A stretch of 64,000 nt of DNA from an uncultured bacterium (GTDB taxonomy: Bacteria > Patescibacteriota > Minisyncoccia > Phycocordibacterales > Phycocordibacteraceae). Below the pieces are notes generated by a model. The model had not been told where the DNA came from, did no database searches, and worked only from the letters and a program-made list of their open reading frames with translations. The position numbers and the translations under genes were made by a program. The first letter of the stretch is position 1; each line of letters opens with the position of its first letter. The stretch covers positions 361,853 to 425,852 of the forward strand of contig CALFMK010000001.1 in the NCBI GenBank assembly GCA_937879955.1, read 5' to 3'. Shown one piece after another: positions 2,861-51,693 of the stretch.

Positions 2861-2927
2861 ACGAAACGGGCCGAAGCCCGTAACGTTGGTACTGTACCGG
2901 TTTTGCCCTCTGAGGGCAAGATGGGTG

Positions 2928-3001
2928 TGCCGACGCCAAGATTTGCACTTGGGACCTTCTCTTTATGAGTGAGATGCTCTAACTACCTGAGCTACGCCGG
3001 C
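2928..3001 (-). tRNA. tRNA-Met/Ile2-like (anticodon CAT), possibly aberrant (G at T-loop position 55, A31-A39 mismatch)
   Basis: Acceptor GCCGGCG/CGUCGGC, D-arm TAGCTCAGGTAGTTAGAGC, anticodon loop CTCATAA. The T-arm is CCAAG-TGCAAAT-CTTGG, i.e. G instead of the conserved U55. Confidence 0.5.
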
Positions 3002-18934: not shown

Positions 18935-18988
18935 GACACGGATACGGAGCAGCAAGAAAGCGCCCGCGAGGGCGCTTTCTTTATCGTG

Positions 18989-19059
18989 TTGCGGGGGCCG
19001 GAATCGAACCGGCGTCTGGAGGTTATGAGCCTCCCGAGGTACCTCTCCTCTACCCCGCT
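18989..19059 (-). tRNA. initiator tRNA-Met (anticodon CAT)
   Basis: Acceptor and T-arm are near-identical to E. coli tRNA-fMet (GCGGGG...GGTTCGATTCCGGCCCCCGCAAC). Position 1-72 is unpaired (A.A), and the anticodon loop is CTCATAA. Confidence 0.75.
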
Positions 19060-23485: not shown

Positions 23486-24751
23486 TCAGTAGGAGATGAC
23501 CACGAACCCGCCGCCGCCTGCGCCGCCTGTCTGCGTGCCCGAATAGCCTGCCGCACCGCCGCCGCCTGCGCCGCGCCCGCCCGCACCGCCGTTACCGCCA
23601 TACCAGCCCGCACCGCCACCGCCGGCACCGAATCCTCCTGCGCTGCCGTTCATGTTGTTCGGAGCCGATGATCCAGAACCCGGACCGGTACCCGGTGTGC
23701 CAACCGGCGATCCTGCTGCCGTAAGCGCCGCAAAGAGCCCGCTGACATCTGTCGGCGTTCCTCCGGTCCCGCCAGCAGCGCCACCTGACGCCCCGCTACC
23801 GCCACCTATCGATCCACCGCCACCGCCACCCGTATCCCCGGACGTGCCGGAACCGGAACCTCCAGTTGCACCGCCGTCGCCGCCCGAATATGATCCGCCA
23901 CTTCCTGCAGAGCCGCTATTGTAAGAGCCTCCTGTCCCGCCGTTTCCAGATATCGTCGTACCGCCAACGGTAACGGTCGTATTGCCTCCGGAGGTACCGT
24001 TACTGCTCGAGGAGCCGCCGGCGCCGGTAGCACCGATAGCATAGGAAACCGTACTGCCGCCAGTCACGACGAACGTCCGGTACGACACGCCGCCTGCGCC
24101 GCCTGCGCCGCCCGACGTGCCGTCATTAGCAATCGAACCTGCGCCGCCGCCGCCGCCGCCAACTGCCCACACCTTGATCGAAGTTACGCCCGTCGGCACG
24201 GACCAGCTCGTCCCTGACGTGAGGAGCACACTTCCGCTCGGCACCACGATCGGCGGAATGGCCGTCGTCGAGGCGTCGTAGGTCACCTTGAGCCCGCGCT
24301 CGATGCGTCTCGGGTCCGAGGTACTGCAGGAGTTGTAGCCGGTAGCATAGATGCAGCTGGTCGCCGACGTGCCGCTACAGATGGGACCGTTCGTCTTATA
24401 GACCGTCACGGAACCGCTCACGCCGTTCGCGCAGGGCGTCGAGAACGTCGTCGTGCGAATACCTCCGGAGACGCTCGTCACGGGCGTTATGTCGGTCGCG
24501 GCGCATCTGATCGTAGAGAGCGGAGTCGTGTAGTCGAACGCGTTCTGCTTCTGGTCCCAGTAGAGGGCGCATTCCATGGCGGCGTCGGCGGCATAGAACG
24601 CGTACTGCGACTGGCGGGCGGTCGAGGAGAGCGTCACCTGCTTGTATGAGATATCGAGGAGCGCGAGGCCGATCGAGAGGAGCACCGAAGTGAGCACCAC
24701 GGCGACCAGGAGCGCGAATCCGCGTGTCTGCGTGTTCATGAGGTTCATCAT
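23486..24751 (-). CDS. PilX-like minor pilin with extremely Gly-rich (GGxGG) C-terminal half
   Basis: PilX_N-like hydrophobic N-terminus (TRGFALLVAVVLTSVLLSIGLALL). About 200 aa of Gly/Ser/Thr/Ala low-complexity repeats at the C-terminus. The ORF-track 5' extension is antisense junk. Confidence 0.6.
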   Translation of the reverse strand: MMNLMNTQTRGFALLVAVVLTSVLLSIGLALLDISYKQVTLSSTARQSQYAFYAADAAMECALYWDQKQNAFDYTTPLSTIRCAATDITPVTSVSGGIRTTTFSTPCANGVSGSVTVYKTNGPICSGTSATSCIYATGYNSCSTSDPRRIERGLKVTYDASTTAIPPIVVPSGSVLLTSGTSWSVPTGVTSIKVWAVGGGGGGAGSIANDGTSGGAGGAGGVSYRTFVVTGGSTVSYAIGATGAGGSSSSNGTSGGNTTVTVGGTTISGNGGTGGSYNSGSAGSGGSYSGGDGGATGGSGSGTSGDTGGGGGGSIGGGSGASGGAAGGTGGTPTDVSGLFAALTAAGSPVGTPGTGPGSGSSAPNNMNGSAGGFGAGGGGAGWYGGNGGAGGRGAGGGGAAGYSGTQTGGAGGGGFVVISY

Positions 24752-25284
24752 AGCCAATCGTAGAGGCGTTCGGTTATCACCACGGTGCGCGCCTGCCCGC
24801 GCGAGGTCCAGGCGACCGTGACCGTGAGGACCATCTCCGTAGTGCTTCCCGCCACGGCCGTGAGGCGGACCGTGCGGGTATACGGGGTCGTCGTGCCTGA
24901 TCCTCCCTGCCCATAGAAGCCGGACGCGTCGAGCGTCATGGGCGCGACCGTCCTGCTCACGGTGTTGCGCACGATGTCTACGACGCAGTCCCCCGTTATG
25001 CAGTTCGCGTACGTGGTCGGGTACCCGGCAGTCCCGTCGACGCCCGCGAGCCAGGTCCGCGCGCCCGGGTTCGCGATGTTGTAGAGGTAATTGCTGTCGC
25101 GCATGGCCCGGACGTACTCCACGCCCTCCTGGGCGAGCGAGGACGCGACGAGCTGCTCGCGCGCATTCCTCGATATGTTGAGCGACTGCTGCACCGCGTA
25201 CAAGGGACCCACGATAGCCGTCAGGATCACCGTGATGGCCACGAGCGTCTCTACGAGCGTGAATCCTCTCATCGGTGTCATCAT
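24748..25284 (-). CDS. type IV minor pilin (prepilin-type N-terminal cleavage/methylation domain)
   Basis: Prepilin N-terminus MRG-FTLVETLVAITV, with ATGA overlap to the PilX-like gene. Confidence 0.7.
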   Translation of the reverse strand: MMTPMRGFTLVETLVAITVILTAIVGPLYAVQQSLNISRNAREQLVASSLAQEGVEYVRAMRDSNYLYNIANPGARTWLAGVDGTAGYPTTYANCITGDCVVDIVRNTVSRTVAPMTLDASGFYGQGGSGTTTPYTRTVRLTAVAGSTTEMVLTVTVAWTSRGQARTVVITERLYDWL

Positions 25285-25835
25285 ATCTCGAGATAGCGCT
25301 GGGTCGCGCTCGTCTGCACGGCGAAGTTCGTCGTCTCCCCCGCATCCGTCGTCATGGTGCCCTTCAAGGCGAAGGTCACCTGCGGCTGGATGCGGTCGGT
25401 CGCGCCGACGCCGACCACGTAGAACTTGAGCGAGGTGATCGAGATGCGCGGGTCAGTGAGCGAGACGGCGGTCGCGCTCGTGCACACGCCGCCCGTGCAC
25501 TGACCGATGCTCCCATTGGACTTCAGGAGGTAGGTTACCGTCTGGCCCTGCGCGTCGACGAAGGCGATGCTCGTCCCGCCCGACGAGCAGTTGGGCGACG
25601 AGCTGCTCTGGTTGCACATGTAGGTCGTGCCGGTGCGCATCGAGCGGGCCATGCTCTCCACCGCGAACGCGAGCGTCGCCGAGAGCTGGTTGCTCGCGCG
25701 CGACTGGCGATCGAGGCTGATGAGCGTGAGGTACGCGCCGGTGACGACCACCATCACCATGCTGAAGAGGCCGAGCGATACGATGAGCTCGACCAGGGTA
25801 TATCCGCGCTTCGTCCGTGCGTTCATCATGGGCAT
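25281..25835 (-). CDS. type IV minor pilin
   Basis: Prepilin N-terminus KRG-YTLVELIVSLGLFS, and a Cys-containing C-terminal domain. Confidence 0.7.
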   Translation of the reverse strand: MPMMNARTKRGYTLVELIVSLGLFSMVMVVVTGAYLTLISLDRQSRASNQLSATLAFAVESMARSMRTGTTYMCNQSSSSPNCSSGGTSIAFVDAQGQTVTYLLKSNGSIGQCTGGVCTSATAVSLTDPRISITSLKFYVVGVGATDRIQPQVTFALKGTMTTDAGETTNFAVQTSATQRYLEI

Positions 25836-26524
25836 TCCGTATCTCCCTTAGTATGCACCGAGACCTGCCCGACGCGTGAGACGTAGATGCACCGCTCGAC
25901 CGCGCCGTCGGGCGACTGGACGCGGATGGTCGCGTCCGAGAGCGGGACGCGCACGCCCGCGCGCACGCCCGTCACCACGGACTGCGTATTCGGGCGCTGA
26001 TAGACGATATCGAGCGCATCGAGGTAGTCGTTGCAGCGCAGGGTACCCACGCCCGTCTCGACGCCGCAGAAGCTCTTTATCTTGAACCCGCCGTTGAAGC
26101 TGTACGTGCGCACGATCTCCGAGGCGAGCGTCTGGATGCAGTCTCCCGGCTTCGCCTCAGGGCCCGTGGAGACCGTATGCCCCGGACAGACGGATGCCGT
26201 CTGCACGTTGCCGGCTGCGACCGGCGAGATGTCGGCGAAGAGGCTGTACGCGTTCAGGGTGCCGGACGAGAAATGGACCCCGTACCCCGCGTTCTGTACG
26301 CTGCTGAATACGCGGCTCGAGAGGCCGAGCGACTGCGCCTCGCGCACCAAGAACGCGATCGTATAGGCGGTATCGGTGAGCGTGAGGGAACGGTTGAAGG
26401 AGGTCTGTCCGAGCAGCGCGATGGTCGTGATGATCACCATGATCGACACCACCACGAGCATCTCTACCAGGGTGAACCCTCGGGCAGGCATGGGGCTTAG
26501 AGTGTGAGGAAGAGAGGGTTCCAT
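25826..26524 (-). CDS. type IV minor pilin (GspH/FimT-like)
   Basis: ARG-FTLVEMLVVVSIMVI prepilin N-terminus. An alternative start at 26491 would avoid overlap with pilD. Confidence 0.65.
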   Translation of the reverse strand: MEPSLPHTLSPMPARGFTLVEMLVVVSIMVIITTIALLGQTSFNRSLTLTDTAYTIAFLVREAQSLGLSSRVFSSVQNAGYGVHFSSGTLNAYSLFADISPVAAGNVQTASVCPGHTVSTGPEAKPGDCIQTLASEIVRTYSFNGGFKIKSFCGVETGVGTLRCNDYLDALDIVYQRPNTQSVVTGVRAGVRVPLSDATIRVQSPDGAVERCIYVSRVGQVSVHTKGDTECP

Positions 26525-27255
26525 TGGGTGAAGAACGCGAGGAGGTATCCCGCAGCGAGGAACGGCACGAAGGGCACTTCAATACCCATTCTATGGCCTT
26601 TAGGGGTAGCGGCCAATATCGCTATCCCGACAAGCGCGCCGATCCAGAACGAGAACAGGAGTCCCGGTATGGCGAGCGAGCCGCCGACCAGGATCGAGAG
26701 CGAGAGCGCCACGGGCGCGTCCCCGAGCCCCATGGCACGCCCGCCGGAGAGCGTGTGGAGGAGGAAGAAGCCGAGCGATATCACGCCCGCTACCATGAGC
26801 GCGAGACCGAGCTGCACTCCCCACCCCATAGAGAAGAGCGCATACAGGAACGAGAACGCGAGGAGCAGCGCAGAGGAGGCCATGGGCACTATGGTGTGCC
26901 GGAGGTCGTACATGACAATGAAGGCGAGGACCGTGAACGCGGCGAGGAGCGGCGCGAGCGGAAGCATGAGACCGACCTTTATATACGCGAGCGCGAACGC
27001 GGTCCCGAGCAGGAACTCGCCGAGCGTGTAGAGGAATGGCACCCGCGCATGGCACGTGCGACACCGCCCGCGGAATGCGAGCCAGGAGAGGACCGGTACC
27101 AGATCAGGCGCCGAGAGTTCCCTGTTGCAGGAGTTGCAGTGCGAGCGCCCCTTCGCCCAGGACTGTCCGGTATAGAGGCGTTCAGCAATCACCGCCATGA
27201 AGCTCGCGAGGATGGAGCCGAGCGCGAAGAAGGCGAAGGCGATGAGGTACGTCAT
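26497..27255 (-). CDS. pilD: prepilin peptidase (A24 family) with N-terminal zinc-finger
   Basis: CNSC...CRTC tetracysteine motif, a polytopic membrane domain and catalytic Asp contexts (GLGDAP). Confidence 0.8.
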   Translation of the reverse strand: MTYLIAFAFFALGSILASFMAVIAERLYTGQSWAKGRSHCNSCNRELSAPDLVPVLSWLAFRGRCRTCHARVPFLYTLGEFLLGTAFALAYIKVGLMLPLAPLLAAFTVLAFIVMYDLRHTIVPMASSALLLAFSFLYALFSMGWGVQLGLALMVAGVISLGFFLLHTLSGGRAMGLGDAPVALSLSILVGGSLAIPGLLFSFWIGALVGIAILAATPKGHRMGIEVPFVPFLAAGYLLAFFTQWNPLFLTL

Positions 27256-27337: not shown

Positions 27338-27817
27338 TTAGTTGCAGTCCTGGTCGCCACTGGCAATCTTGTAGGTTGCCGTAGTAGTAGCGTCTCCGCT
27401 CGAATCAACGCAGTAGAATCCCGACGTCTTAAGAGGGACAGAAGCAGCCCATGCCGTTGCGGTCGCGAAGCAAGTCTCAGCCACGGTGTCATAGGAAGTG
27501 TTGCTACGACCATACGCGGTAATAGCAGCATCAACGCCATCTCCGATGACGTTCACCCCTACCGTGTTGCAGACGCTGGCGTAACTGTTGTTATTGCCGT
27601 CAAAATACAACTCAGCCTCCGCACGAGCATTCGCGAGGTTCGACTTCACTGCTGCGTCCGCGCCGCGATTACGCGCCGTGTTGAGGGACGCGAGCACTAC
27701 TGCCGAAAGGATACCGATAATTGCAATCACGACGAGAAGCTCGATGAGCGTGAAGCCGCGGGAAGTGTTGGGTGACGACATAATATTAGGATTCTTCATG
27801 AACGTACTATACGACAT
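27338..27817 (-). CDS. type IV pilin (major-pilin-like), paralogue 1
   Basis: SRG-FTLIELLVVIAIIGILSAVVLASLNTARNRGADAAVKSNLANARAEAELYF, then a variable Cys-containing C-terminal domain. Confidence 0.8.
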   Translation of the reverse strand: MSYSTFMKNPNIMSSPNTSRGFTLIELLVVIAIIGILSAVVLASLNTARNRGADAAVKSNLANARAEAELYFDGNNNSYASVCNTVGVNVIGDGVDAAITAYGRSNTSYDTVAETCFATATAWAASVPLKTSGFYCVDSSGDATTTATYKIASGDQDCN

Positions 27818-27905
27818 ACTTGCTACCCTTTAGGCAGAGGGTATATGGGGATAACAAAAGCGCCCGTTTCGCGGGCGCTTTTGCAGGTAACAGAATCTGC
27901 AGGGC

Positions 27906-28376
27906 CTAGCAGGCGTAGTCAGTACCGCTTGTGATAATACCTACTGCAGAGGTCGTAGCAGCACCGGTGCTGTCGACACAGTAGACGGTCGTACCACCCT
28001 TGAGACCGACGGCCGCTGCCCAAGCAGTTGCGCTCGCGTTACATACCGCAGTCGAACCAGAGCTACCGGCGCTGTTTGTGCTGTAGGAAGTGAAGCCGGC
28101 AGCGGCAGCAGCAGCCTGAACACTGTCTCCGATGACGTTGGCTGTCGTCGTGTTCGCACAAACGCCGGTATAAACATTGTTGTTGCTGTCATAGAACAGC
28201 TCAGCCTCCGCGCGAGCATTGGCGAGGTTCGACTTAACAGCTGCGTCCGCGCCGCGATTACGCGCCGTGTTGAGGGACGCGAGGACGACGGATGAGAGGA
28301 TGCCGATGATGGCGATCACGACGAGAAGCTCGATGAGCGTGAAGCCGCGTTCAGCCTTAAGGTGTCCGAGAGTCAT
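27906..28376 (-). CDS. type IV pilin (major-pilin-like), paralogue 2 (tandem duplicate)
   Basis: N-terminal ~60 aa nearly identical to the 27338..27817 product. Its C-terminal domain has diverged. Confidence 0.8.
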   Translation of the reverse strand: MTLGHLKAERGFTLIELLVVIAIIGILSSVVLASLNTARNRGADAAVKSNLANARAEAELFYDSNNNVYTGVCANTTTANVIGDSVQAAAAAAGFTSYSTNSAGSSGSTAVCNASATAWAAAVGLKGGTTVYCVDSTGAATTSAVGIITSGTDYAC

Positions 28377-28497: not shown

Positions 28498-29706
28498 TTA
28501 AGATATGCCTCCTGCCACGTTGTAGATAGGGATGAGTACGGACGCGAGGAGCGTTCCCACGCCGAGACCGAGCAGCACGATCATGAGCGGCTCAATGAGG
28601 TCCACGAGCGTATCCACGGCCGTGGTCACCTCGCGCTGATAGAAGTGCGCGAGCGTGTTGAGGATCTTGCCGAGCTCTCCGGTCTCCTCTCCCACGCGCA
28701 CCATGGCCGTCATGATGCCCGGGATCTCCGCATGGAGCGCAAGCGCGTCCGAGATCGAGGCGCCTCCCTTCACCGCCTCCCCCACCTCCTTCAGGATGTT
28801 CTCGTACGTCGGACTGCCCACGACCGATGCCGTAATATCGACCGCCTCGACGACCGGCACGCCGGACACGAGCATCGTCGCGAAGTTGTCCGCGATGCGC
28901 GAGAGGTAGAGCTTCTGGTACAGGTCGCCGATGTACGGCACGTCGAGCTTCGTCTTGTCGAAGAAGAGCCGTCCGGACTCGGTCTGCAGCGCGCGGTACG
29001 CGAAGAACGCCGCGACGCCGAGCCCCACCAGGAACAGGAAGCCGTAGTTCACGAGGAAGTCCGAGAGCCCGATGACGATCTGGGTATAGATAGGGATCGC
29101 CTGCCCCGAGTCCTTGAGGATGCTCGCGATGCGCGGGATCACCATCGTGAGCATGAGCGCCATCACGACGAAGAACACGCTGATGGTGAAGGCCGGGTAG
29201 ATGAGCGCGCTCGTCGCCTTGTTCATCACCTCGTACGTGCGGTCGAGATAATCCGCGAGATAGCCGAACGTCTCCGAGAGCTTTCCGGACTCCTCGCCCG
29301 AGCGCACCATGTTCACGTAGAAGGTCGTGAACACCTTCGGATGGCGGCTCAGCGCCTTACTGATCGGGCTTCCGCCCTGGAGGTCGTCGGCGACCTGCGT
29401 CATGATCTCCGCGAGATAGGTGTTGTCCACCTCCGCCGCGAGGAGGCGGAAGATGCGGAGCGCGGACACCTGCGCCTCGAAGAGCGTCGCTATCTGCCGC
29501 GACAGGATGACCACGTCCTTGTTCGAGACGTGCCGCAGGAAGCTGATCTCGACGTTGAAGCCGGCCTTCTTCTGGATCGGCTCTATGGACGAGACGATGA
29601 GACCGCGGCGCTGCAGGGTCGAGACCGCGACGTCGACGGAGAGCGCCTCCACCGTGCCTGCGCGCTCGCGGCCGTCCTTATCGAGTGCATGGTAGGAGAA
29701 GAGCAT
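28498..29706 (-). CDS. pilC: type IV pilus platform protein PilC (GspF family)
   Basis: Two GspF-like repeats with three TM segments, 402 aa. Confidence 0.85.
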   Translation of the reverse strand: MLFSYHALDKDGRERAGTVEALSVDVAVSTLQRRGLIVSSIEPIQKKAGFNVEISFLRHVSNKDVVILSRQIATLFEAQVSALRIFRLLAAEVDNTYLAEIMTQVADDLQGGSPISKALSRHPKVFTTFYVNMVRSGEESGKLSETFGYLADYLDRTYEVMNKATSALIYPAFTISVFFVVMALMLTMVIPRIASILKDSGQAIPIYTQIVIGLSDFLVNYGFLFLVGLGVAAFFAYRALQTESGRLFFDKTKLDVPYIGDLYQKLYLSRIADNFATMLVSGVPVVEAVDITASVVGSPTYENILKEVGEAVKGGASISDALALHAEIPGIMTAMVRVGEETGELGKILNTLAHFYQREVTTAVDTLVDLIEPLMIVLLGLGVGTLLASVLIPIYNVAGGIS

Positions 29707-29712
29707 AGGGTT

Positions 29713-30780
29713 CTATAGGTAGCGCTCGAAGGTCTTCGGGTCGTTCGCGCGCTCGTACGCGTGCTCGATCGTCACCTCGCCGCGACGCACCAGCTCGGCG
29801 AGCGAGCGGTCCATGTCGATCATGCCCTCCTGGGAGCTCGTCTGGATGACGGTCGTGATCTCGTGCGTGCGACCCTCGCGGATGAGGTTCGAGACGGCGC
29901 TGTTGTTGATAAGGAGCTCGTAGGCCGGAAGCTGCCCGCCGGAGATGCGCGGCACGAGGCGCTGGCTGAAGATGCCGGCGAGGGATCCCGCGAGCTGCAC
30001 GCGGACCTGGTCCTGCTGGTTCGGCGGGAACATGTCGATGATGCGGTCGATGGTCTGCGCCGCGTTGTTCGTATGGAGCGTCGAGAGCACGAGGTGGCCG
30101 GTCTCTGCCGCGGTCACGGCCGAGGATATGGTCTCCTGGTTGCGCATCTCGCCCACCATGATCACGTTCACGTCCTCGCGGAAGGCGGCGTTGAGCGCGG
30201 AGTGGAAGTCCGGCGTGTCGATATGGACCTCGCGCTGATGGATGAGGGACTTCTTCTGGTCGAAGATGTACTCGACCGGGTCCTCGATCGTCACGATGTG
30301 CTCGGCGCGCGTCTCGTTGATGCGGTCGATGATGGTCGCGAGGGTCGTGGACTTGCCCTGCCCCACCGGACCCACCACGAGGAAGAAGCCCTGGGAGCGC
30401 TGGCTGAACACCTCGAGGATCGGGGGCAGGTTCAGGGACTCGAAGGAGCGGATCTCGTGCGGGATGAGGCGCATGGCTATCGTCACGCCGCCCTGCACGT
30501 AGTAGCCGTTCACGCGGAAGCGGGATTGCGCCGTGTGCGCGTATGAGAAATCGATGGACTGCTCCTTCGCGAAGCGATCGAGGCGTGAGGCCGGCACGAT
30601 GCTCTTGAGATAGCTCTCCGACATCTCGGCGGTGAGCACCGGATGCTGGAGGAGCGGCACGAGCGAGCCCGAGATGCGGAGGATCGGGTTGCTGCCAACC
30701 GAGAGATGGAGGTCGGACGCGCCTTCGCTGACGACCGTATCGAGGAGGGCTTTCAGGCTTGCGGAGGCCTGCTCGTTCAT
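29713..30780 (-). CDS. pilT: type IV pilus retraction ATPase PilT
   Basis: Walker A GPVGQGKSTT, Asp and His boxes, about 355 aa (PilT/PilU size). Confidence 0.85.
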   Translation of the reverse strand: MNEQASASLKALLDTVVSEGASDLHLSVGSNPILRISGSLVPLLQHPVLTAEMSESYLKSIVPASRLDRFAKEQSIDFSYAHTAQSRFRVNGYYVQGGVTIAMRLIPHEIRSFESLNLPPILEVFSQRSQGFFLVVGPVGQGKSTTLATIIDRINETRAEHIVTIEDPVEYIFDQKKSLIHQREVHIDTPDFHSALNAAFREDVNVIMVGEMRNQETISSAVTAAETGHLVLSTLHTNNAAQTIDRIIDMFPPNQQDQVRVQLAGSLAGIFSQRLVPRISGGQLPAYELLINNSAVSNLIREGRTHEITTVIQTSSQEGMIDMDRSLAELVRRGEVTIEHAYERANDPKTFERYL

Positions 30781-31177: not shown

Positions 31178-32965
31178 TTAGGCGGGAATCTTCTCCTCGT
31201 CCTCCAGAAGCGTCTGGCCGCCCAGGGCGTTCACTTCCTCGAACGGGATCAGTCCTGCTAACGCCTTAATGATAGCATCCTCGCGCATCGTAAACATGCC
31301 CTTCTTGCGGGCGGCGGCGTAGACGCTCTCCTCGGTCGGCTGGGTGAGCACCACATGCTCGAGCTCCTTGTCCATGCGCAGGAGCTCGAAGACGGCGAGG
31401 CGGCCGCGGGTGCCGTTCGGGCAGTCCGGGGACGGCGCGGCCGTGTAGAACGTCTCGAACTTCGGGAGCTTCTCGCGGAACTCGGGCGCCAGATCCGAGA
31501 ACTCGTGCTCGAGGAGCCCCTGCATGCTCTCCGTGAGCGGGAACGGCTTCCCTGCGCCCGGACAGAGCTTCCGCACGAGGCGCTGGCCGATGGCCGCGAT
31601 CAGGGTCGGCGCGATGAGGTACGGGTCGACGCCCATGTCCACGAGGCGCGGGATCACGCCGGCCGCCGTGTTCGTATGGATCGTCGAGAACACGAGGTGT
31701 CCCGTGAGCGCCGCCTGGATGGCGAGCTGCGCGGTCTCCTTGTCGCGGATCTCTCCCACCATGATGATGTCCGGGTCCTGACGGAGGATGGAGCGGAGGC
31801 CGGAGGCGAAGGTGTAGCCGATCTCGGGGCGCACCTGCGACTGCGCCACGCCCGGGATCTCGTACTCGACCGGATCCTCGACCGACACCACGTTCTCCGT
31901 CTCGCGATCGAGCTCCGAGATCATGGAGAAGAGGGTCGTCGACTTTCCGGAACCGGTCGGTCCGGCGATGAGGACGATGCCGTACGGCTGCTTGATGATG
32001 TCCCGGATCTGCGCGAGGTCCGCGGCGGAAAGGCCGATCGACTCGAGGGTCGTCACGGACTTCGCGCTGTCGAGGATACGCATCACCACCTTCTCGCCGG
32101 CCTGCGTCGGGAAGGTCGAGACGCGGAAATCGATGCGGCGTCCCTCCACGGTCGCGGAGAAGCGTCCGTCCTGCGGCTTGCGCTTCTCGTCGAGGCGCAT
32201 CTGGGAGAGGATCTTGATGCGCGCGACCACCGCAGGATGCACCTTCGCCGGAAGCTCGAGAGAGGTATGGAGCTCGCCGTCCATGCGGAAGCGCACGCGC
32301 GTCTTCTCGGGCGTCGGCTCGATATGGATGTCGGACGCGCCGCCCTCAACCGCGTAGCGCAGGATCGTGGCGACGATTTTCGTCACCGGCGCGTCCTCCT
32401 TTATGTTCGCCTCGGCCGCCTCCTCGGTCTTGTCCTTCTCTGCGCCCGGCGCGGCGGCGGCGGAGCCCTCGTACTGCGAGAGCGCCTCCCCCACCACGCC
32501 CGAGAGGTCCTCGTACTCCTTGAGCACCTTCTCGAAATCGGAGCGCGAGATCAGGAAGAGCTTGTACGGCATCCCCACGCGCGAGGATATGAACTGGAGC
32601 GCGTCGAGCGCCTCGATGTTGTCCGGGTCGAGTATGCCCACCTCGAGCGCGCCAGAGGCGTTCGCGATAGGAACGAACTGGTAGTGCCGTGCGGACTCCT
32701 CGGGGATATACGCGAGCACCTCCTGGTCAGCGAGCTCGGCTGGAAGCTGGCGGTACGGGATGCCGTACTTCTCCGAGGCCACCGCGTACGCCTTCTCGGC
32801 CGTGATGCCGTGCTTCTCGAGGACCGCCTCGAGATCGGTGTCGGGCGCGCGCGTCTCTTCGGTGATAGCGGCAACGTCCGCGGGCGTGAGCATGCCCTTC
32901 TCGGCGAGGAGCGTTACGAGGTTCATGCGCAAGGGCGCAGGCCGCTCGCCTGCGATGATAGGCAC
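31178..32965 (-). CDS. pilB: type IV pilus assembly ATPase PilB (GspE family)
   Basis: N-terminal GSPII domains, Walker A GPTGSGKSTTL and a tetracysteine-like region, 595 aa. Confidence 0.85.
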   Translation of the reverse strand: MPIIAGERPAPLRMNLVTLLAEKGMLTPADVAAITEETRAPDTDLEAVLEKHGITAEKAYAVASEKYGIPYRQLPAELADQEVLAYIPEESARHYQFVPIANASGALEVGILDPDNIEALDALQFISSRVGMPYKLFLISRSDFEKVLKEYEDLSGVVGEALSQYEGSAAAAPGAEKDKTEEAAEANIKEDAPVTKIVATILRYAVEGGASDIHIEPTPEKTRVRFRMDGELHTSLELPAKVHPAVVARIKILSQMRLDEKRKPQDGRFSATVEGRRIDFRVSTFPTQAGEKVVMRILDSAKSVTTLESIGLSAADLAQIRDIIKQPYGIVLIAGPTGSGKSTTLFSMISELDRETENVVSVEDPVEYEIPGVAQSQVRPEIGYTFASGLRSILRQDPDIIMVGEIRDKETAQLAIQAALTGHLVFSTIHTNTAAGVIPRLVDMGVDPYLIAPTLIAAIGQRLVRKLCPGAGKPFPLTESMQGLLEHEFSDLAPEFREKLPKFETFYTAAPSPDCPNGTRGRLAVFELLRMDKELEHVVLTQPTEESVYAAARKKGMFTMREDAIIKALAGLIPFEEVNALGGQTLLEDEEKIPA

Positions 32966-33363: not shown

Positions 33364-33930
33364 TTAGCGGAGCCAGTAAATGCGGAACGTCATGGTGTAG
33401 GTATAGACGCCGGTCGCCGAGTCCTGCACGGAGAGCTCGACCACGTCGAGCGGACGCAGGCTCTTCTCGAGGCCGTTGAGGAAGACGCGGAAGGCCTCAT
33501 AGCTTCCCGTCGCGGAGACCGAGACCTCGAGCGAGTCCGTAGACTCGCCGCTCGTGAACACGGAGTCGGGGGTCGCAGCGGCGGCGGCGTCACCTGCCGC
33601 GGAATCCTCGCCGCTCACGCTGAACTGCGAGAGCTCGACGCCCGAGCGCGCGGCGAGCGAGTTGAGGTCAACGATGAGCTGCACGTTGTCGACGCTGTCA
33701 GGCAGCGCGGCGTTCAGGCGCTCGAGCTGGTCGGCAGGGATGGTGCTGCGCTCGCGCGTGAGCGCCACCTCCTTCTCCTTGAAATCGCGCGCGGCCTGCA
33801 GCGCGGTGTCGAGGCTCTTGTTCTCGGCGGAGAGCGTCGCTATCGAGCCCGAATAGGTCGGCTGGATGTACCCGAAGAAGAGGCCGCCAGCGGCAATCAC
33901 GAGGAGGATGGGAATGAGGCGGGAGATCAT
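33364..33930 (-). CDS. pilO: type IV pilus biogenesis protein PilO-like
   Basis: N-terminal TM, a coiled-coil and a C-terminal ferredoxin-like domain, adjacent to pilN. Confidence 0.6.
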   Translation of the reverse strand: MISRLIPILLVIAAGGLFFGYIQPTYSGSIATLSAENKSLDTALQAARDFKEKEVALTRERSTIPADQLERLNAALPDSVDNVQLIVDLNSLAARSGVELSQFSVSGEDSAAGDAAAAATPDSVFTSGESTDSLEVSVSATGSYEAFRVFLNGLEKSLRPLDVVELSVQDSATGVYTYTMTFRIYWLR

Positions 33931-34721
33931 AGCGCAGGTGCGGATACCGGTGGGGTCGATGTCCCCTTCGCAGGGGCAGTGGTCGTAGCCGTCTTGGTCG
34001 TCGTGGTCGCAAGCGGCGCGCCCGGGAGCGTCGCCGGCACGATGTTGCTCGCCGACGCCGGCTCTTCAGGCTCGCTTATGCCCGGAAGGACCTCCGCGGA
34101 CGTGATGAGGCGCGGCTCTATGCTGGCCGAGAGAGAGAACGAGACGGTCCCGTTCTCGTTCAGGGAGATGCCGGAGAAGATGGCGCGCTTGATCTGCTTC
34201 TCGGCGGCGAGCTGCGTGCTCTGCGCGGCGAGCGCGTTGAAGTTCTTCGCGACGCCCTCCATCTGTATCTCCGCCGAGCGGTCCTCGTCTACCGAGAGCT
34301 TGAGGCCGCTGAAACGGACGGTCTGGAGCGTGCGCAGCTCGAGCAGGTCGAAGAACTCGGACAGGATGACGTGCTCGTCGAGGAGCGATTCGAGCGCGGC
34401 GAGACGCCCGCGAAGGCGTATGAAGTCCTCGACCGTATCGATATTGACCGCCTTCTGCGCTTCTTCGAGCTGGACGGTCTTCGACGCGTGCGCGCCCTTG
34501 AGATAGAACTCGTACGCGAACACGGCTCCGGCGATGACGACGCTGGCCGCGGCGACGGACGCGCCGATTATCATGAATACGTTCACGCCGCTCTTCGCGC
34601 GGCGCGCAGGCGCTGCCGCGACCGGCTGCTTAGGGACGAACGAGGTAGGTATGGTCGGAGGAAGGGCCACGGTGGGTACAGTATACGGGAAAACGCGAGC
34701 GCTGGCTGCGCCCTTATGCAC
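33927..34721 (-). CDS. pilN: type IV pilus biogenesis protein PilN-like
   Basis: Single TM (VFMIIGASVAAASVVIAGAVFAY), coiled-coil, and a Thr/Pro/Ala-rich C-terminal tail. Confidence 0.6.
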   Translation of the reverse strand: MHKGAASARVFPYTVPTVALPPTIPTSFVPKQPVAAAPARRAKSGVNVFMIIGASVAAASVVIAGAVFAYEFYLKGAHASKTVQLEEAQKAVNIDTVEDFIRLRGRLAALESLLDEHVILSEFFDLLELRTLQTVRFSGLKLSVDEDRSAEIQMEGVAKNFNALAAQSTQLAAEKQIKRAIFSGISLNENGTVSFSLSASIEPRLITSAEVLPGISEPEEPASASNIVPATLPGAPLATTTTKTATTTAPAKGTSTPPVSAPAL

Positions 34722-34727
34722 AGAGCC

Positions 34728-35819
34728 CTACCCTCCCTCCTCCTCGAGCTTGCGGAGCGCGAGCCCGACCGCGACCGCGAACTCAGGGCCGATGGCCTGA
34801 AGCACCGGACGCATGAAGGCGGGCGCCTGGGTCTTCCCGAACGGGTCGGCGATGCGCACGTCTATCGAGAAGAAGGTCTTCGCGTACGCTTCGAGCTCCT
34901 TCGTGACGCCGCCGCCTCCCGTGAGGACGAGCCCGGAGATCTTCTTACCCTTAACGGACTCGTACTGGCTCGCCGCGCGCTTCGCCTCGTCGAAGATACG
35001 CGAGAAGACGAGCTCGATCGAGCGTCGGTCATACGCGCCGTCCGATTTCGCGAACCCGTGCTGCTTCTTCAGGGTCTCCGCGCTCCCCACCGAGATACCG
35101 CTCGACGTGGCGATGGTGCGCGTCACGTCCTGGCCGCCGCGCGGGATGTTGTGCGAGAGTGCGATGACGCCGTGCTCGACGACGTACATCTTCGTCGCGG
35201 AGGCTCCGATATCGAGCACGAGCACCGGCTTCACCGGCTCGTCCACGACCGAGCGGATCGTGCTGAATATCTCTATCTCGTAGAACGAGGCCTCGAGCTC
35301 GGTCTGGCGGACGACGCTCTCAAGGAGCGCGAGCTCGTCGTTATGGACCGCGACGAGGAGCACCTGGATCTTCGAAGGAGGCTCCGCGCCCTCCGGGATC
35401 GCGTCCGGGATGACGAACCAGTCGAGCTGGACCTCTGAGACCGGGACCGGGATGTACTTCCTCGCCTCGAGCTCGATGACGGTCTTCTGCTCTTCGGGAT
35501 TGTCCCGGCGAGGCAGCTCGACGAGCGTGAGCAGGGAGCGCGAGAACGGGATGGACATGCCCGTGTTCTTCGTCGTGACATTCGCCTCGCGCAGAAGGTC
35601 GGCGAGCGTCTCCGCGATCTTCGAGGCAGGCAGGTTCGTCGCCTGCCCCACCTCGACGCCGGCATACGGGCCGAGCGCGAGCTCGCCATACGTCTCGAGC
35701 ACCGCGACGCCGCGATCGCGACGGAGCTGCACCACCTTCAAGGAGGACGAGCCGATATCGATGCCGATGACGCTCCTCGATTTCTTGTTCCCGCTGAACA
35801 GTTTTGACAGGAAGCTCAT
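34728..35819 (-). CDS. pilM: type IV pilus assembly protein PilM (actin-like ATPase fold)
   Basis: IGIDIGSSSLKVV phosphate-1 motif and FtsA/PilM-like architecture. Start set at MSFLSKLF. Confidence 0.8.
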   Translation of the reverse strand: MSFLSKLFSGNKKSRSVIGIDIGSSSLKVVQLRRDRGVAVLETYGELALGPYAGVEVGQATNLPASKIAETLADLLREANVTTKNTGMSIPFSRSLLTLVELPRRDNPEEQKTVIELEARKYIPVPVSEVQLDWFVIPDAIPEGAEPPSKIQVLLVAVHNDELALLESVVRQTELEASFYEIEIFSTIRSVVDEPVKPVLVLDIGASATKMYVVEHGVIALSHNIPRGGQDVTRTIATSSGISVGSAETLKKQHGFAKSDGAYDRRSIELVFSRIFDEAKRAASQYESVKGKKISGLVLTGGGGVTKELEAYAKTFFSIDVRIADPFGKTQAPAFMRPVLQAIGPEFAVAVGLALRKLEEEGG

Positions 35820-35842
35820 TGGGGCGATTGTATCATGCAGAC

Positions 35843-36469
35843 ATGAAGGTATTCCGCGTATTCCTCGACATCCTCTTCCCTCCTCGCGCGAACGAGGCGC
35901 TCGTGACGAGTGCTTCGAGCGAGTCGCTCGGCGTGCATGCGCGCGCACGCGTGGCAGGCATGCACATCGCGGTCCTGTTCCCGTACCGCACCCGACTCGT
36001 CCGCGCCTGCGTGCTCGAGGCGAAGTTCCGTGACAGCGAGCGCGCCCAGCGGCTTCTCGGCCGCGCGCTCGCCGACTACCTGCTCGAATGGAGCGCGGAG
36101 CGTGAAGCGTTCACGGAAGGAGCTATCACCCTCATACCGATCCCACTCTCCCAGGAACGTATACGGGAGCGCGGATACAACCAGACGGAACGCATCGCGC
36201 GCGACGCTGCACAATCGACCCAGTCCATAGCGATCGACACCGGCCTCCTCGCCCGCCCGCGCAACACCCTTCCCCAGACAAGCCTCGGCAAAGCGGAGCG
36301 CCGAGAGAACCTCAAGGGCGCCTTCCAGGCTGTGAAAGCCCTGGATCCGGACCATACCTATATAGTGTTCGACGACGTGCTCACGACCGGAAGCACGCTC
36401 GAAGCTGCCATGGATGCGCTGCGAGACGCCGGGGCGCGCCGCATCTGCGGCCTCGCATTGGCGCATTAG
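35843..36469 (+). CDS. comFC: ComF-family competence protein (phosphoribosyltransferase domain, ComFC-like)
   Basis: C-terminal PRTase motif YIVFDDVLTTGSTLEA. Divergent from pilM. Start set at MKVFRVF. Confidence 0.7.
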   Translation: MKVFRVFLDILFPPRANEALVTSASSESLGVHARARVAGMHIAVLFPYRTRLVRACVLEAKFRDSERAQRLLGRALADYLLEWSAEREAFTEGAITLIPIPLSQERIRERGYNQTERIARDAAQSTQSIAIDTGLLARPRNTLPQTSLGKAERRENLKGAFQAVKALDPDHTYIVFDDVLTTGSTLEAAMDALRDAGARRICGLALAH

Positions 36470-47959: not shown

Positions 47960-48033
47960 GCACCCTTAGCTCAGTTGGTTAGAGCACCGAGCTTATACCT
48001 CGGCGGTCCTTGGTTCGAGTCCAAGAGGGTGCA
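47960..48033 (+). tRNA. tRNA-Ile with anticodon TAT (UAU)
   Basis: Acceptor GCACCCT/AGGGTGC, D-arm TAGCTCAGTTGGTTAGAGC, perfect anticodon stem CCGAG/CTCGG, loop CTTATAC, T-loop TTCGAGT. Confidence 0.7.
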
Positions 48034-48106
48034 CCGATTTACGGGAAGTGCGTAGACGGGGCTTTTCTGGTACGGTGCAATCAGGTAAGACAGAAGGAGT
48101 ACTGAT

Positions 48107-51258: not shown

Positions 51259-51667
51259 GGGGGTGACCGGCTTTGACGGTCCTGTACTTTGAGAGACGTG
51301 CGGCGCGGTGGAAGGATGCTGACCACCTAAAAACGCATTCACCCAAACTTGCCAAGAACACTCTTGCAAGCGTGAAGTCCCCGTACTTCGGTATGAAGGA
51401 TTTCGCGTTCGCTTACGCGTAAAAGCTTCGCGCTTTCGCCTGAGCGACGTTCATGCAGTCCCGTTCCTTCAGGGGTCTGTATGGGCGGAATCATCTGAAG
51501 GATCGGTATCGCGGCTTTCCCAGGCCACGGCTTAAAAGACGGGATCAGGCAGGGGCGTTTTCGCTAACGTTCCTATTCCCCTGCCGAAGCTTCAACGTTA
51601 GCTACGCGCCGTAGACTCGCTCTTGAAGCAGGATTCGGACCGGAGTTCGACTCTCCGCACCTCCACC
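51259..51667 (+). ncRNA. ssrA: tmRNA (ssrA), standard one-piece
   Basis: 5' GGGGGUGACCGGCUUUGACGG matches the tmRNA 5' consensus. The 3' tRNA-like end is GGACCGGAGTTCGACTCTCCG-CACCTCC-A-CC, whose acceptor is complementary to the 5' end. It lies 370 bp downstream of smpB. Candidate tag ORF is ...KSPYFGMKDFAFAYA*. Confidence 0.7.
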
Positions 51668-51693
51668 GATATAGAACTATGTAGAAATACATA

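Follow-up and report, generated by a model that had tools for sequence, protein, structure and literature searches.

Modular pilins are adhesins (PMC8179133). PilB and PilC of S. sanguinis (PMC8179133, PMC9934059) are minor pilins encoded in the pilus locus, in which a pilin module is followed by a short linker and a bulky C-terminal functional module, vWA in PilB and lectin in PilC; both are predicted to be tip-exposed and are assigned an adhesin role. In Patescibacteria, the minor pilins named PilX1 and PilX2 of the Saccharibacterium TM7x are the largest in their loci and possess an extra C-terminal domain proposed as a tip adhesin, a beta-jelly-roll in PilX1 and an RCC1 seven-bladed propeller in PilX2 (PMC11623550). 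Deletion of pilX2 halves host binding, and this module-bearing PilX from one Saccharibacterium constitutes the sole genetic evidence so far for partner recognition in the ultrasmall Patescibacteria (PMC11623550).

The rationale for placing subunits that lack Glu5 at the top of the tip complex is given in PMC9934059. GspK and P. aeruginosa PilX, each the last of four core minor pilins, are without Glu5 and occupy the top position of a tip complex that shows an adhesin, PilY1 in the case of P. aeruginosa; S. sanguinis PilA is likewise without Glu5. In the diderm T4aP the adhesin role falls to PilY1, a protein of its own that is not a pilin.

Glycine-rich folds are known from phage tails. gp24 of cyanophage Pam3 (PDB 7YPX/7YFW) contains a TNF-like sandwich, the strands of which run on into a four-layer lattice of Gly-rich motifs; these motifs are conserved, the distal tips are hypervariable, and the tips are proposed to bind the host receptor (PMC9608196). 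The protein is trimeric, requires the chaperone gp25, and bears an N-terminal helical trimerisation and baseplate-docking domain (PMC9608196). Bxb1 presents the fold in the gp33 “tail wing brush” and the gp29 tail spike (PDB 9D93), both virion parts, and the function of the fold in gp33 is not established (PMC12646305). Pam3, Bxb1 gp33/gp29, the S16 adhesin gp38 and ALK have been grouped as Gly-rich PPII-helical bundles (PMC13243192).

The gene at 23486-24751 of the window (the whole stretch of 64 kb that was analysed, ~65% GC) unites features of these systems. Its product very probably has a two-module architecture and fold, laid out along the minus strand as follows.

23486-24751, minus strand: whole gene, modular PilX-type minor pilin, 421 aa plus stop, stop codon at 23486-23488.
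24719-24751, minus strand: leader peptide, residues 1-11 (MMNLMNTQTRG), putative prepilin-peptidase cut after G11.
24278-24718, minus strand: pilin module, residues 12-158, alpha1 helix and 7-strand sheet, Val at mature position 5, Cys at 61, 83, 107 and 142.
24230-24277, minus strand: linker, residues 159-174 (DASTTAIPPIVVPSGS), of low pLDDT in both models and absent from stand-alone orthologues.
23489-24229, minus strand: glycine-rich module, residues 175-421, predicted Gly_rich_2 / TNF-like sandwich with polyglycine-II-type lattice, as in phage tail-fibre tips.

What marks the protein as a modular pilin is that its stand-alone orthologues end at Y158, that a linker of low pLDDT spans residues 159-174, and that the C-terminal module is found in phage too, as well as in many proteins that are not pilins. 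As in S. sanguinis PilB and PilC, a pilin module encoded in a pilus locus is joined through a short linker to a bulky C-terminal module. In contrast to them, the carrier is a Glu5-less member of the PilX/GspK class, which surveys based on N_methyl/IPR012902 miss, and the module is, by sequence and model, a Gly_rich_2 domain of phage-fibre type. The likeness to the TM7x proteins is one of architecture, the modules of the latter not being glycine-rich lattices, and TM7x pilX2 is the closest experimental precedent for a PilX-borne adhesin module. GspK differs in having an inserted alpha-domain, and the diderm T4aP in keeping the adhesin separate, whereas the adhesin-like module is here fused to the pilin.

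The ORF at 23486-24751 is a real gene. Its start was set at MMNLMNTQTRGFALL by alignment with orthologues, and the stand-alone orthologues begin likewise (MMNPMDTSRGFALL); the start ATG shares the ATGA at 24748-24751 with the stop of the upstream pilin gene. A 619-aa ORF opening from 25345 in the same frame runs over the upstream pilin gene and was rejected as an artefact of high GC. Over the 771-nt Gly-rich stretch the annotated frame alone is open and each of the other five frames holds 4-9 stops, which shows that the reading frame is right; in alignment, homologues cover this entire stretch with 51-62% identity. A high-GC genome yields many spurious long ORFs, the nearest relatives of the N-module stop at Y158, and the exact protein is absent from the public gene-position collection, all of which would fit an assembly error, a frameshift that joins pilX to a separate gene downstream, or an ORF that does not code. 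Such an origin is nevertheless scarcely credible, since L002 and L003, which come from independent assemblies of ENA and JGI, carry this fusion at the same syntenic site, it occurs in 5 of 80 genomes, the sense frame alone is open, the module aligns end-to-end with hundreds of proteins, and linker and module follow in frame with no intervening stop or start. The alternative named in the original prediction, antisense junk with the true stop lying earlier, is excluded by the homologue alignment, the independent fusions and the sole open frame.

The gene is the last of a complete type IV pilus cluster, encoded entirely on the minus strand in the order pilMNO-pilB-pilT-pilC, two major pilins, pilD, three minor pilins and the PilX-type gene. 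The upstream members are listed below.

24748-25284, minus strand: minor pilin, PilV/GspI-like, 178 aa, Glu5 present; N_methyl, with TIGR02523 pilV (E 2.3e-6) and gspI (E 4e-4) both sub-threshold.
25281-25835, minus strand: minor pilin, 184 aa, Glu5 present; N_methyl E 2.2e-6, ComGE-like match.
25826-26524, minus strand: minor pilin, GspH-like, 232 aa, Glu5 present; N_methyl E 2.3e-6, gspH E 3.2e-5 (sub-threshold).
26497-27255, minus strand: prepilin peptidase PilD; A24_N_bact E 4e-24, Peptidase_A24.
27338-27817 and 27906-28376, minus strand: two major-pilin-like genes; N_methyl E 6e-10 and 7e-9.
28498-29706, minus strand: pilC; Pfam T2SSF.
29713-30780, minus strand: pilT; Pfam T2SSE.
31178-32965, minus strand: pilB; Pfam T2SSE+MshEN.
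33364-33930, minus strand: pilO; Pfam PilO, marginal, with no single stretch within the E-value limit.
33927-34721, minus strand: pilN; Pfam PilN, marginal, 21.3 bits against a cut-off of 22.8.
34728-35948, minus strand: pilM; Pfam PilM_2.

The pilD gene lies four genes upstream of the PilX-type gene, and ligA, gatC and gatA lie downstream; between pilM and ligA no secretin or pilY1 gene is present. The gene order of the cluster recurs in the related loci L001, L002 and L085. According to the translations, Glu5 is present in both major pilins and in the three upstream minor pilins.

Residues 12-158 are a minor pilin of the PilX/GspK class, the “carrier”. The N-terminus, MMNLMNTQTRG followed by FALLVAVVLTSVLLSIGLALL, conforms to the pattern of a class III signal peptide, with a polar leader, Gly at -1 and a hydrophobic helix. 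R10 and G11 at the putative PilD site are kept in at least 90% of 58 family members, and cleavage by PilD after G11 is putative; the four cysteines (61, 83, 107, 142) are invariant or nearly so in the 58-sequence alignment of the PilX family. PilX_N (PF14341) matches residues 10-60 over its entire profile (1-51 of 51), with 17.1 bits against a cut-off of 25.5 and E 5.5e-3, and precomputed matches to PF14341 are found in the homologues P0107, P0121, P0130 and P0189. With residues 1-172 as the query, 561 homologues were found. The best 120 of these are nearly all of ~150-190 aa, with up to 88% identity, and several relatives of the N-module are named “PilX” by their sources. The closest relatives are stand-alone proteins of ~155 aa that end exactly at the equivalent of Y158 (RIERGLKV[FT]Y, then stop). 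The AlphaFold2 model of the N-module, built from 58 sequences, shows a 60-residue alpha1 helix (residues 10-69) and seven strands with a pLDDT of 89.4, thus the pilin “lollipop” fold of a long alpha1 on an antiparallel sheet, and its best structural matches are the tip minor pilins GspK and PilA. The original prediction of a PilX-class minor pilin is borne out by this fold and by the position of the gene behind pilD and three N_methyl minor pilins, the PilX_N match being sub-threshold; two of its suggested checks, for the R-G-F cleavage motif and for a folded N-domain, turned out positive (motif present and conserved; 60-residue alpha1 with beta-sheet at the above pLDDT).

Glu5 is replaced by Val in the protein and is absent across its PilX family. 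By analogy, a Glu5-less subunit would be expected as the uppermost member of the complex of minor pilins by which the pilus is primed and capped. The same feature could be taken to indicate that the protein acts outside the pilus, with the PilX-like helix serving as a membrane anchor or as part of a short pseudopilus and the module held at the cell surface; scores against PilX_N and N_methyl are weak or absent, and the TM7x PilX proteins are not predicted to be PilD substrates (PMC11623550). We regard this placement as unlikely: the cut site keeps a conserved R-G-F, translation of the gene is coupled within a minor-pilin operon beside pilD, the pilin fold finds its best matches in GspK and PilA, and a top subunit normally lacks Glu5 (PMC9934059).

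The carrier is followed by a stretch that looks like a flexible linker only over residues ~159-173 (DASTTAIPPIVVPSG, ~15 residues), with pLDDT of 53-58 in the N model (low at residues 160-172) and ~75 in the first block of the C model. Beyond it, residues 176-421 contain 39% Gly, 14% Ser, 11% Thr and 11% Ala, so that G/S/T/A account for 75%. Glycine content of this order does not mean disorder, tempting as that reading is. The module of ~247 aa includes the conserved beta-strands SWSVPTGVTSIKVWAVGGGGGG, VSYRTFVV, VSYAIG, TTVTVGGTTISGNGG and FVVISY, a short helix (SGLFAAL) and 14 aromatic residues, and the strands and aromatics between the Gly motifs are conserved in the homologue alignment. 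The AlphaFold2 model, from a 30-sequence alignment, reaches a pLDDT of 94.3 and a pTM of 0.91 with zero residues below 50. Gly_rich_2 (PF21722) spans residues 179-421, that is, positions 3-225 of 226 of the profile, with 15.9 bits against a cut-off of 24.3, and the cut-off is passed by P0002 (36.4 bits), P0003 (41.4), P0001 (26.8), P0029 (48.7) and P0066 (51.3), homologues with whole-module alignments at E 1e-47 to 1e-59. Among 70 proteins homologous to the full protein, most contain PF21722. Alignments with close homologues extend over the full module at E 1e-47 to 1e-63 with 51-62% identity, and the family comprises 24,903 clusters at 50% identity (E ≤ 1e-3). Conservation alternates between the Gly motifs and variable stretches at 207-211, 246-252, 277-284, 318-336 and 344-372. 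In some non-pilin homologues (P0011, P0017, P0018) the module is circularly permuted, which fits N and C termini that lie close together in the fold. As modelled, the module is a compact folded Gly_rich_2 domain, a TNF-like beta-sandwich combined with extended Gly-rich strands that form a lattice. The homologous structures would further suggest polyglycine-II geometry and a location of the variable stretches in loops.

This fold bears directly on the proposal that the Gly-rich half is a disordered, flexible tether or spacer, the length of which varies by repeat slippage. The proposal draws on the composition given above, on short micro-repeats including (GCC)6, and on the DSSP assignment, which finds most of the region to be neither helix nor strand. 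The missing helix and strand are, however, what polyglycine-II/PPII strands would be expected to give (PMC13243192), no residue of the model falls below a pLDDT of 50, and conservation extends to the non-Gly positions and the beta-strands. The length of the module is constant (246-252 aa) in the closest homologues, and Tandem Repeats Finder detects micro-repeats of at most 25 bp and no longer tandem array, the longest regular one being (GCC)6 at 24142-24160. A disordered tether is thus largely refuted and very improbable. The original prediction had described a ~200-aa poly-Gly tail of almost pure low complexity: richness in Gly stands, while the extent is greater and the region contains strands, a helix and aromatics. 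Its view of the tail as repeat-prone is weakly founded, and a long flexible extension of variable length receives no support from micro-repeats together with conserved module length, nor from the compact fold with its near-complete Gly_rich_2 profile match. The suggestion that the C-terminal half could act as an adhesin fares better, being supported in spirit; the module may be an adhesin, only not as a flexible tether.

The compact Gly_rich_2 domain shares homology with the receptor-binding domains at the distal end of phage tail fibres (Pam3 gp24, Bxb1 gp33 and gp29) and, more distantly, to the glycine-rich domain of ALK/LTK (PF12810; PDB 7LRZ, 7NX3). A sequence profile of the module alignment retrieves Pam3 gp24 at E 4.4e-9 and ALK at E 0.03-0.08. 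Such a profile was needed to reach gp24, as phmmer with the whole protein gave no match among PDB sequences. A tblastn search of phage genomes gave no match either. Foldseek against BFVD returned 235 viral proteins at E ≤ 1e-3, among the names of which are glycine-rich domain protein, tail fibre, minor tail protein and syn9 Gp38. PHROG 863, of the tail category, matches the module at E 1e-5. P0008 shares 54% identity with the module and belongs to a cluster of phage tail-fibre genes in which DUF2793, Mtd_N and Peptidase_S74 also occur. In comparison with Pam3 gp24, the present module has an extra insertion of ~60 residues (~313-374, which holds the helix SGLFAAL), hangs on a pilin, and is presumably a monomer. 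An ice-binding role, considered by analogy with the PPII-bundle antifreeze protein of the snow flea, was dropped for lack of support.

The solved relatives of the module are all ligand- or receptor-recognition parts of phage tails or of a receptor ectodomain. This speaks against a folded module with a role other than adhesion, such as DNA capture for transformation, as proposed for the beta-solenoid tip pilin ComZ, or a structural or protective cap (PMC9608196 for the phage relatives). DNA binding is further argued against by the near absence of charge (3 K+R, 4 D+E, pI 4.6), and at the same site the orthologue L021 carries a probable discoidin-type domain, from a family that includes galactose-binding proteins. 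A non-adhesive role is therefore judged improbable.

The reading preferred here, to which we assign a probability of roughly 0.6, is that of a modular pilin at the tip, on which a receptor-binding module of phage type is displayed as a pilus adhesin. It is proposed by analogy with the GspK/HIJK tip complexes, the modular pilins of S. sanguinis (PMC8179133, PMC9934059), phage fibres and ALK. PilD would cut the pilin-Gly_rich_2 protein after G11; the mature protein and the three upstream minor pilins would nucleate the pilus, and the PilX-type protein would ride out on the tip while PilB polymerises the major pilins. The tip would then show one copy of the Gly-rich module on its short linker, with variable loop tips that may bind a ligand on a surface, the likeliest being that of a host or partner cell of the Patescibacterium, and PilT-driven retraction would draw the cell onto its target. 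The architecture is shown, and the processing by PilD, the tip location, the binding of a ligand and the nature of this ligand are inferred. Against the mechanism stands the fact that the Pam3 module works in a chaperone-dependent trimer (PMC9608196), whereas the pilus tip would carry a monomer. In the 64-kb window no second Gly-rich module was found.

The distribution of the module was followed at the PilX locus of 80 species-level related genomes, all of them Patescibacteria (Paceibacterota/Parcubacteria, Kaiserbacteria and MAGs labelled “Saccharibacteria”). PilX has no C-terminal extension in 73 of them, which indicates that the module is dispensable for pilus assembly; in the remaining 7 the extension is at least 155 aa long, and in 5 of these 7 it contains 35-42% Gly. 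Pfam scans covered four of the seven tails (L019, L021, L025, L046), and L018 and L053 were placed by sequence resemblance only. Gly_rich_2 was matched in L025 and L046, the latter closely resembled by L053. ALK_LTK_GRD (PF12810) was matched in L019 and also in the metagenomic homologues P0012, P0015 and P0016, a group that L018 resembles. The L021 tail gives an F5/8-type-C/NedA-like match at E 5e-6, marginally below the cut-off, and is, judged from this match, a probable discoidin-type sugar-binding domain. The L017 tail is Y/Q/S-rich and broken by an assembly gap.

The shared syntenic site comprises pilD, three minor pilins, pilX, ligA, gatC and gatA. At this site L001, whose N-module is 84% identical, has a 153-aa PilX without the module and ligA 51 bp further on, and L002 and L003 have a 437-aa PilX with Gly_rich_2. 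The same module is carried by at least three unrelated types of pilin: the present PilX family, other PilX-like proteins (P0002, P0003, P0224), and classical Glu5 pilins (P0038, P0191, P0199, P0221, P0226, P0250, P0302). P0003 lies in an equivalent pilT-pilC-pilin-pilD-minor-pilin operon. The distribution of the Gly-rich C-module is thus patchy and cassette-like.

A tentative extension is that Patescibacteria and phages share a pool of receptor-binding modules, with the C-terminal slot of PilX possibly serving as a swappable “host-range cassette” that sets the partner cell. The slot is either empty or holds Gly_rich_2, ALK_LTK_GRD-type, discoidin-like or, in TM7x, jelly-roll or RCC1 modules. 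If this held, the slot would set the partner of the episymbiont much as tail-fibre tips set the host range of a phage, and from the PilX cassette one could read off, or engineer, which partners uncultured Patescibacteria are specific for. Apart from this extension, the locus indicates that in another, Paceibacterota-like branch the tip-pilin slot can hold a domain family of phage tail-fibre tips, and the variable filling of the slot among close relatives makes it a testable candidate determinant of specificity. The catalogue of modular pilins is extended to Glu5-less carriers that N_methyl-based surveys would miss, and the polyglycine-II/TNF-like fold gains a cellular, non-viral context. A literature search of incomplete coverage found no paper on PF21722, Gly_rich_2 or polyglycine fused to a pilin; at that coverage, this result speaks only weakly for novelty. 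The preprint 10.64898/2026.03.03.709456 of 2026, on a “novel pilus system in CPR”, concerns a chaperone-usher-like pilus and has no bearing here.

Base composition differs between the two modules. GC3 is 0.63 in the Gly-rich module (0.48 at residues 251-325), against 0.86 for the pilin module; most neighbours lie at 0.81-0.93. The lower value was considered as a sign of recent horizontal transfer and set aside, since the same drop recurs in all nine other module-bearing PilX loci tested (9/9) and is thus a property of the module that provides no evidence of transfer. Perhaps the low GC3 of Gly-rich modules compensates for the forced G at codon positions 1 and 2. We also note that one protein, P0005, combines Gly_rich_2 with RCC1.

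The Gly-rich module of the target protein, the PilX-class minor pilin encoded at 23486-24751 on the minus strand, carries a subfamily-specific insertion of ~60 residues at residues ~313-374 (window about 23630-23815). A conserved D-[VI]-S-G-L motif lies within it, as does SGLFAAL, the module's sole helix. The insertion is missing in the shorter module variants of ~190 aa (alignment A1).

The order of the segments within the module also varies. In the homologous proteins P0011, P0017 and P0018, the module's final ~70 residues (GFG.GGGGAGWYGG...VVISY) precede its first ~175, and this swapped order indicates that the Gly-rich domain is circularly permuted. In P0005 and P0006, an RCC1 propeller of seven repeats comes after the Gly-rich module, for which identity is 62% in P0005. 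The C-terminal module of PilX2 in the Saccharibacteria strain TM7x is a domain of the same kind as this propeller (PMC11623550).

A further homologue is encoded on another contig, in a phage-like setting:
L084 8001-8918: P0008, 305 aa, 54% identical to the Gly-rich module

Its neighbourhood is a phage-like tail-fibre cluster with DUF2793, two Mtd_N proteins and Peptidase_S74. Since Cpn60, an M16 peptidase and EF-Ts are also encoded on the contig, it may represent a large phage.

In orthologous PilX proteins, the same fusion point is occupied by different C-terminal cassettes (loci L019, L021 and L017; proteins P0012, P0015 and P0016). These are ALK_LTK_GRD (PF12810), an F5/8-type-C or NedA-like galactose-binding-type domain, whose match falls just below threshold, and a low-complexity tail that is rich in Tyr, Gln and Ser and broken by an assembly gap.

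When GC at third codon positions (GC3) was compared between the two modules of each gene, the C-terminal module had the lower value in all 10 genes, by 0.02-0.25 relative to the pilin module; the comparison comprised the target (window 23489-24229) and the loci L002, L003, L018, L019, L021, L025, L046, L053 and L085, the module of L021 being discoidin-like and not Gly-rich. Overall GC is as high or higher in the Gly-rich modules. The lower GC3 seems to reflect the composition of such Gly-rich modules and not to be a signature of transfer.

Elsewhere in the pilus cluster, the two major-pilin-like genes (27338-28376, minus strand) have GC3 of 0.61 and 0.64, against 0.81-0.93 in the rest of the cluster, and local GC of 0.53-0.57 as opposed to ~0.65. 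These much lower values may be due to the genes having been replaced through transfer, or to selection acting differently on the exposed filament subunits.

The mechanical ORF list contains a 619-aa ORF at 23486-25345 (minus strand) in the frame of the target. Its first 198 codons, which are Arg-rich and overlap the PilV-like gene in a different frame, are spurious; such an extension is typical for this high-GC sequence.

We also note the following RNA genes in the window:
2927-3001: tRNA-Met(CAT), called
18988-19059: tRNA-Met(CAT), called
47960-48035, plus strand: tRNA-Ile, anticodon TAT (UAU)
51259-51668, plus strand: full-length tmRNA gene (Rfam RF00023, 94 bits)

A tRNA-Ile with the UAU anticodon is an uncommon means of reading AUA in bacteria.
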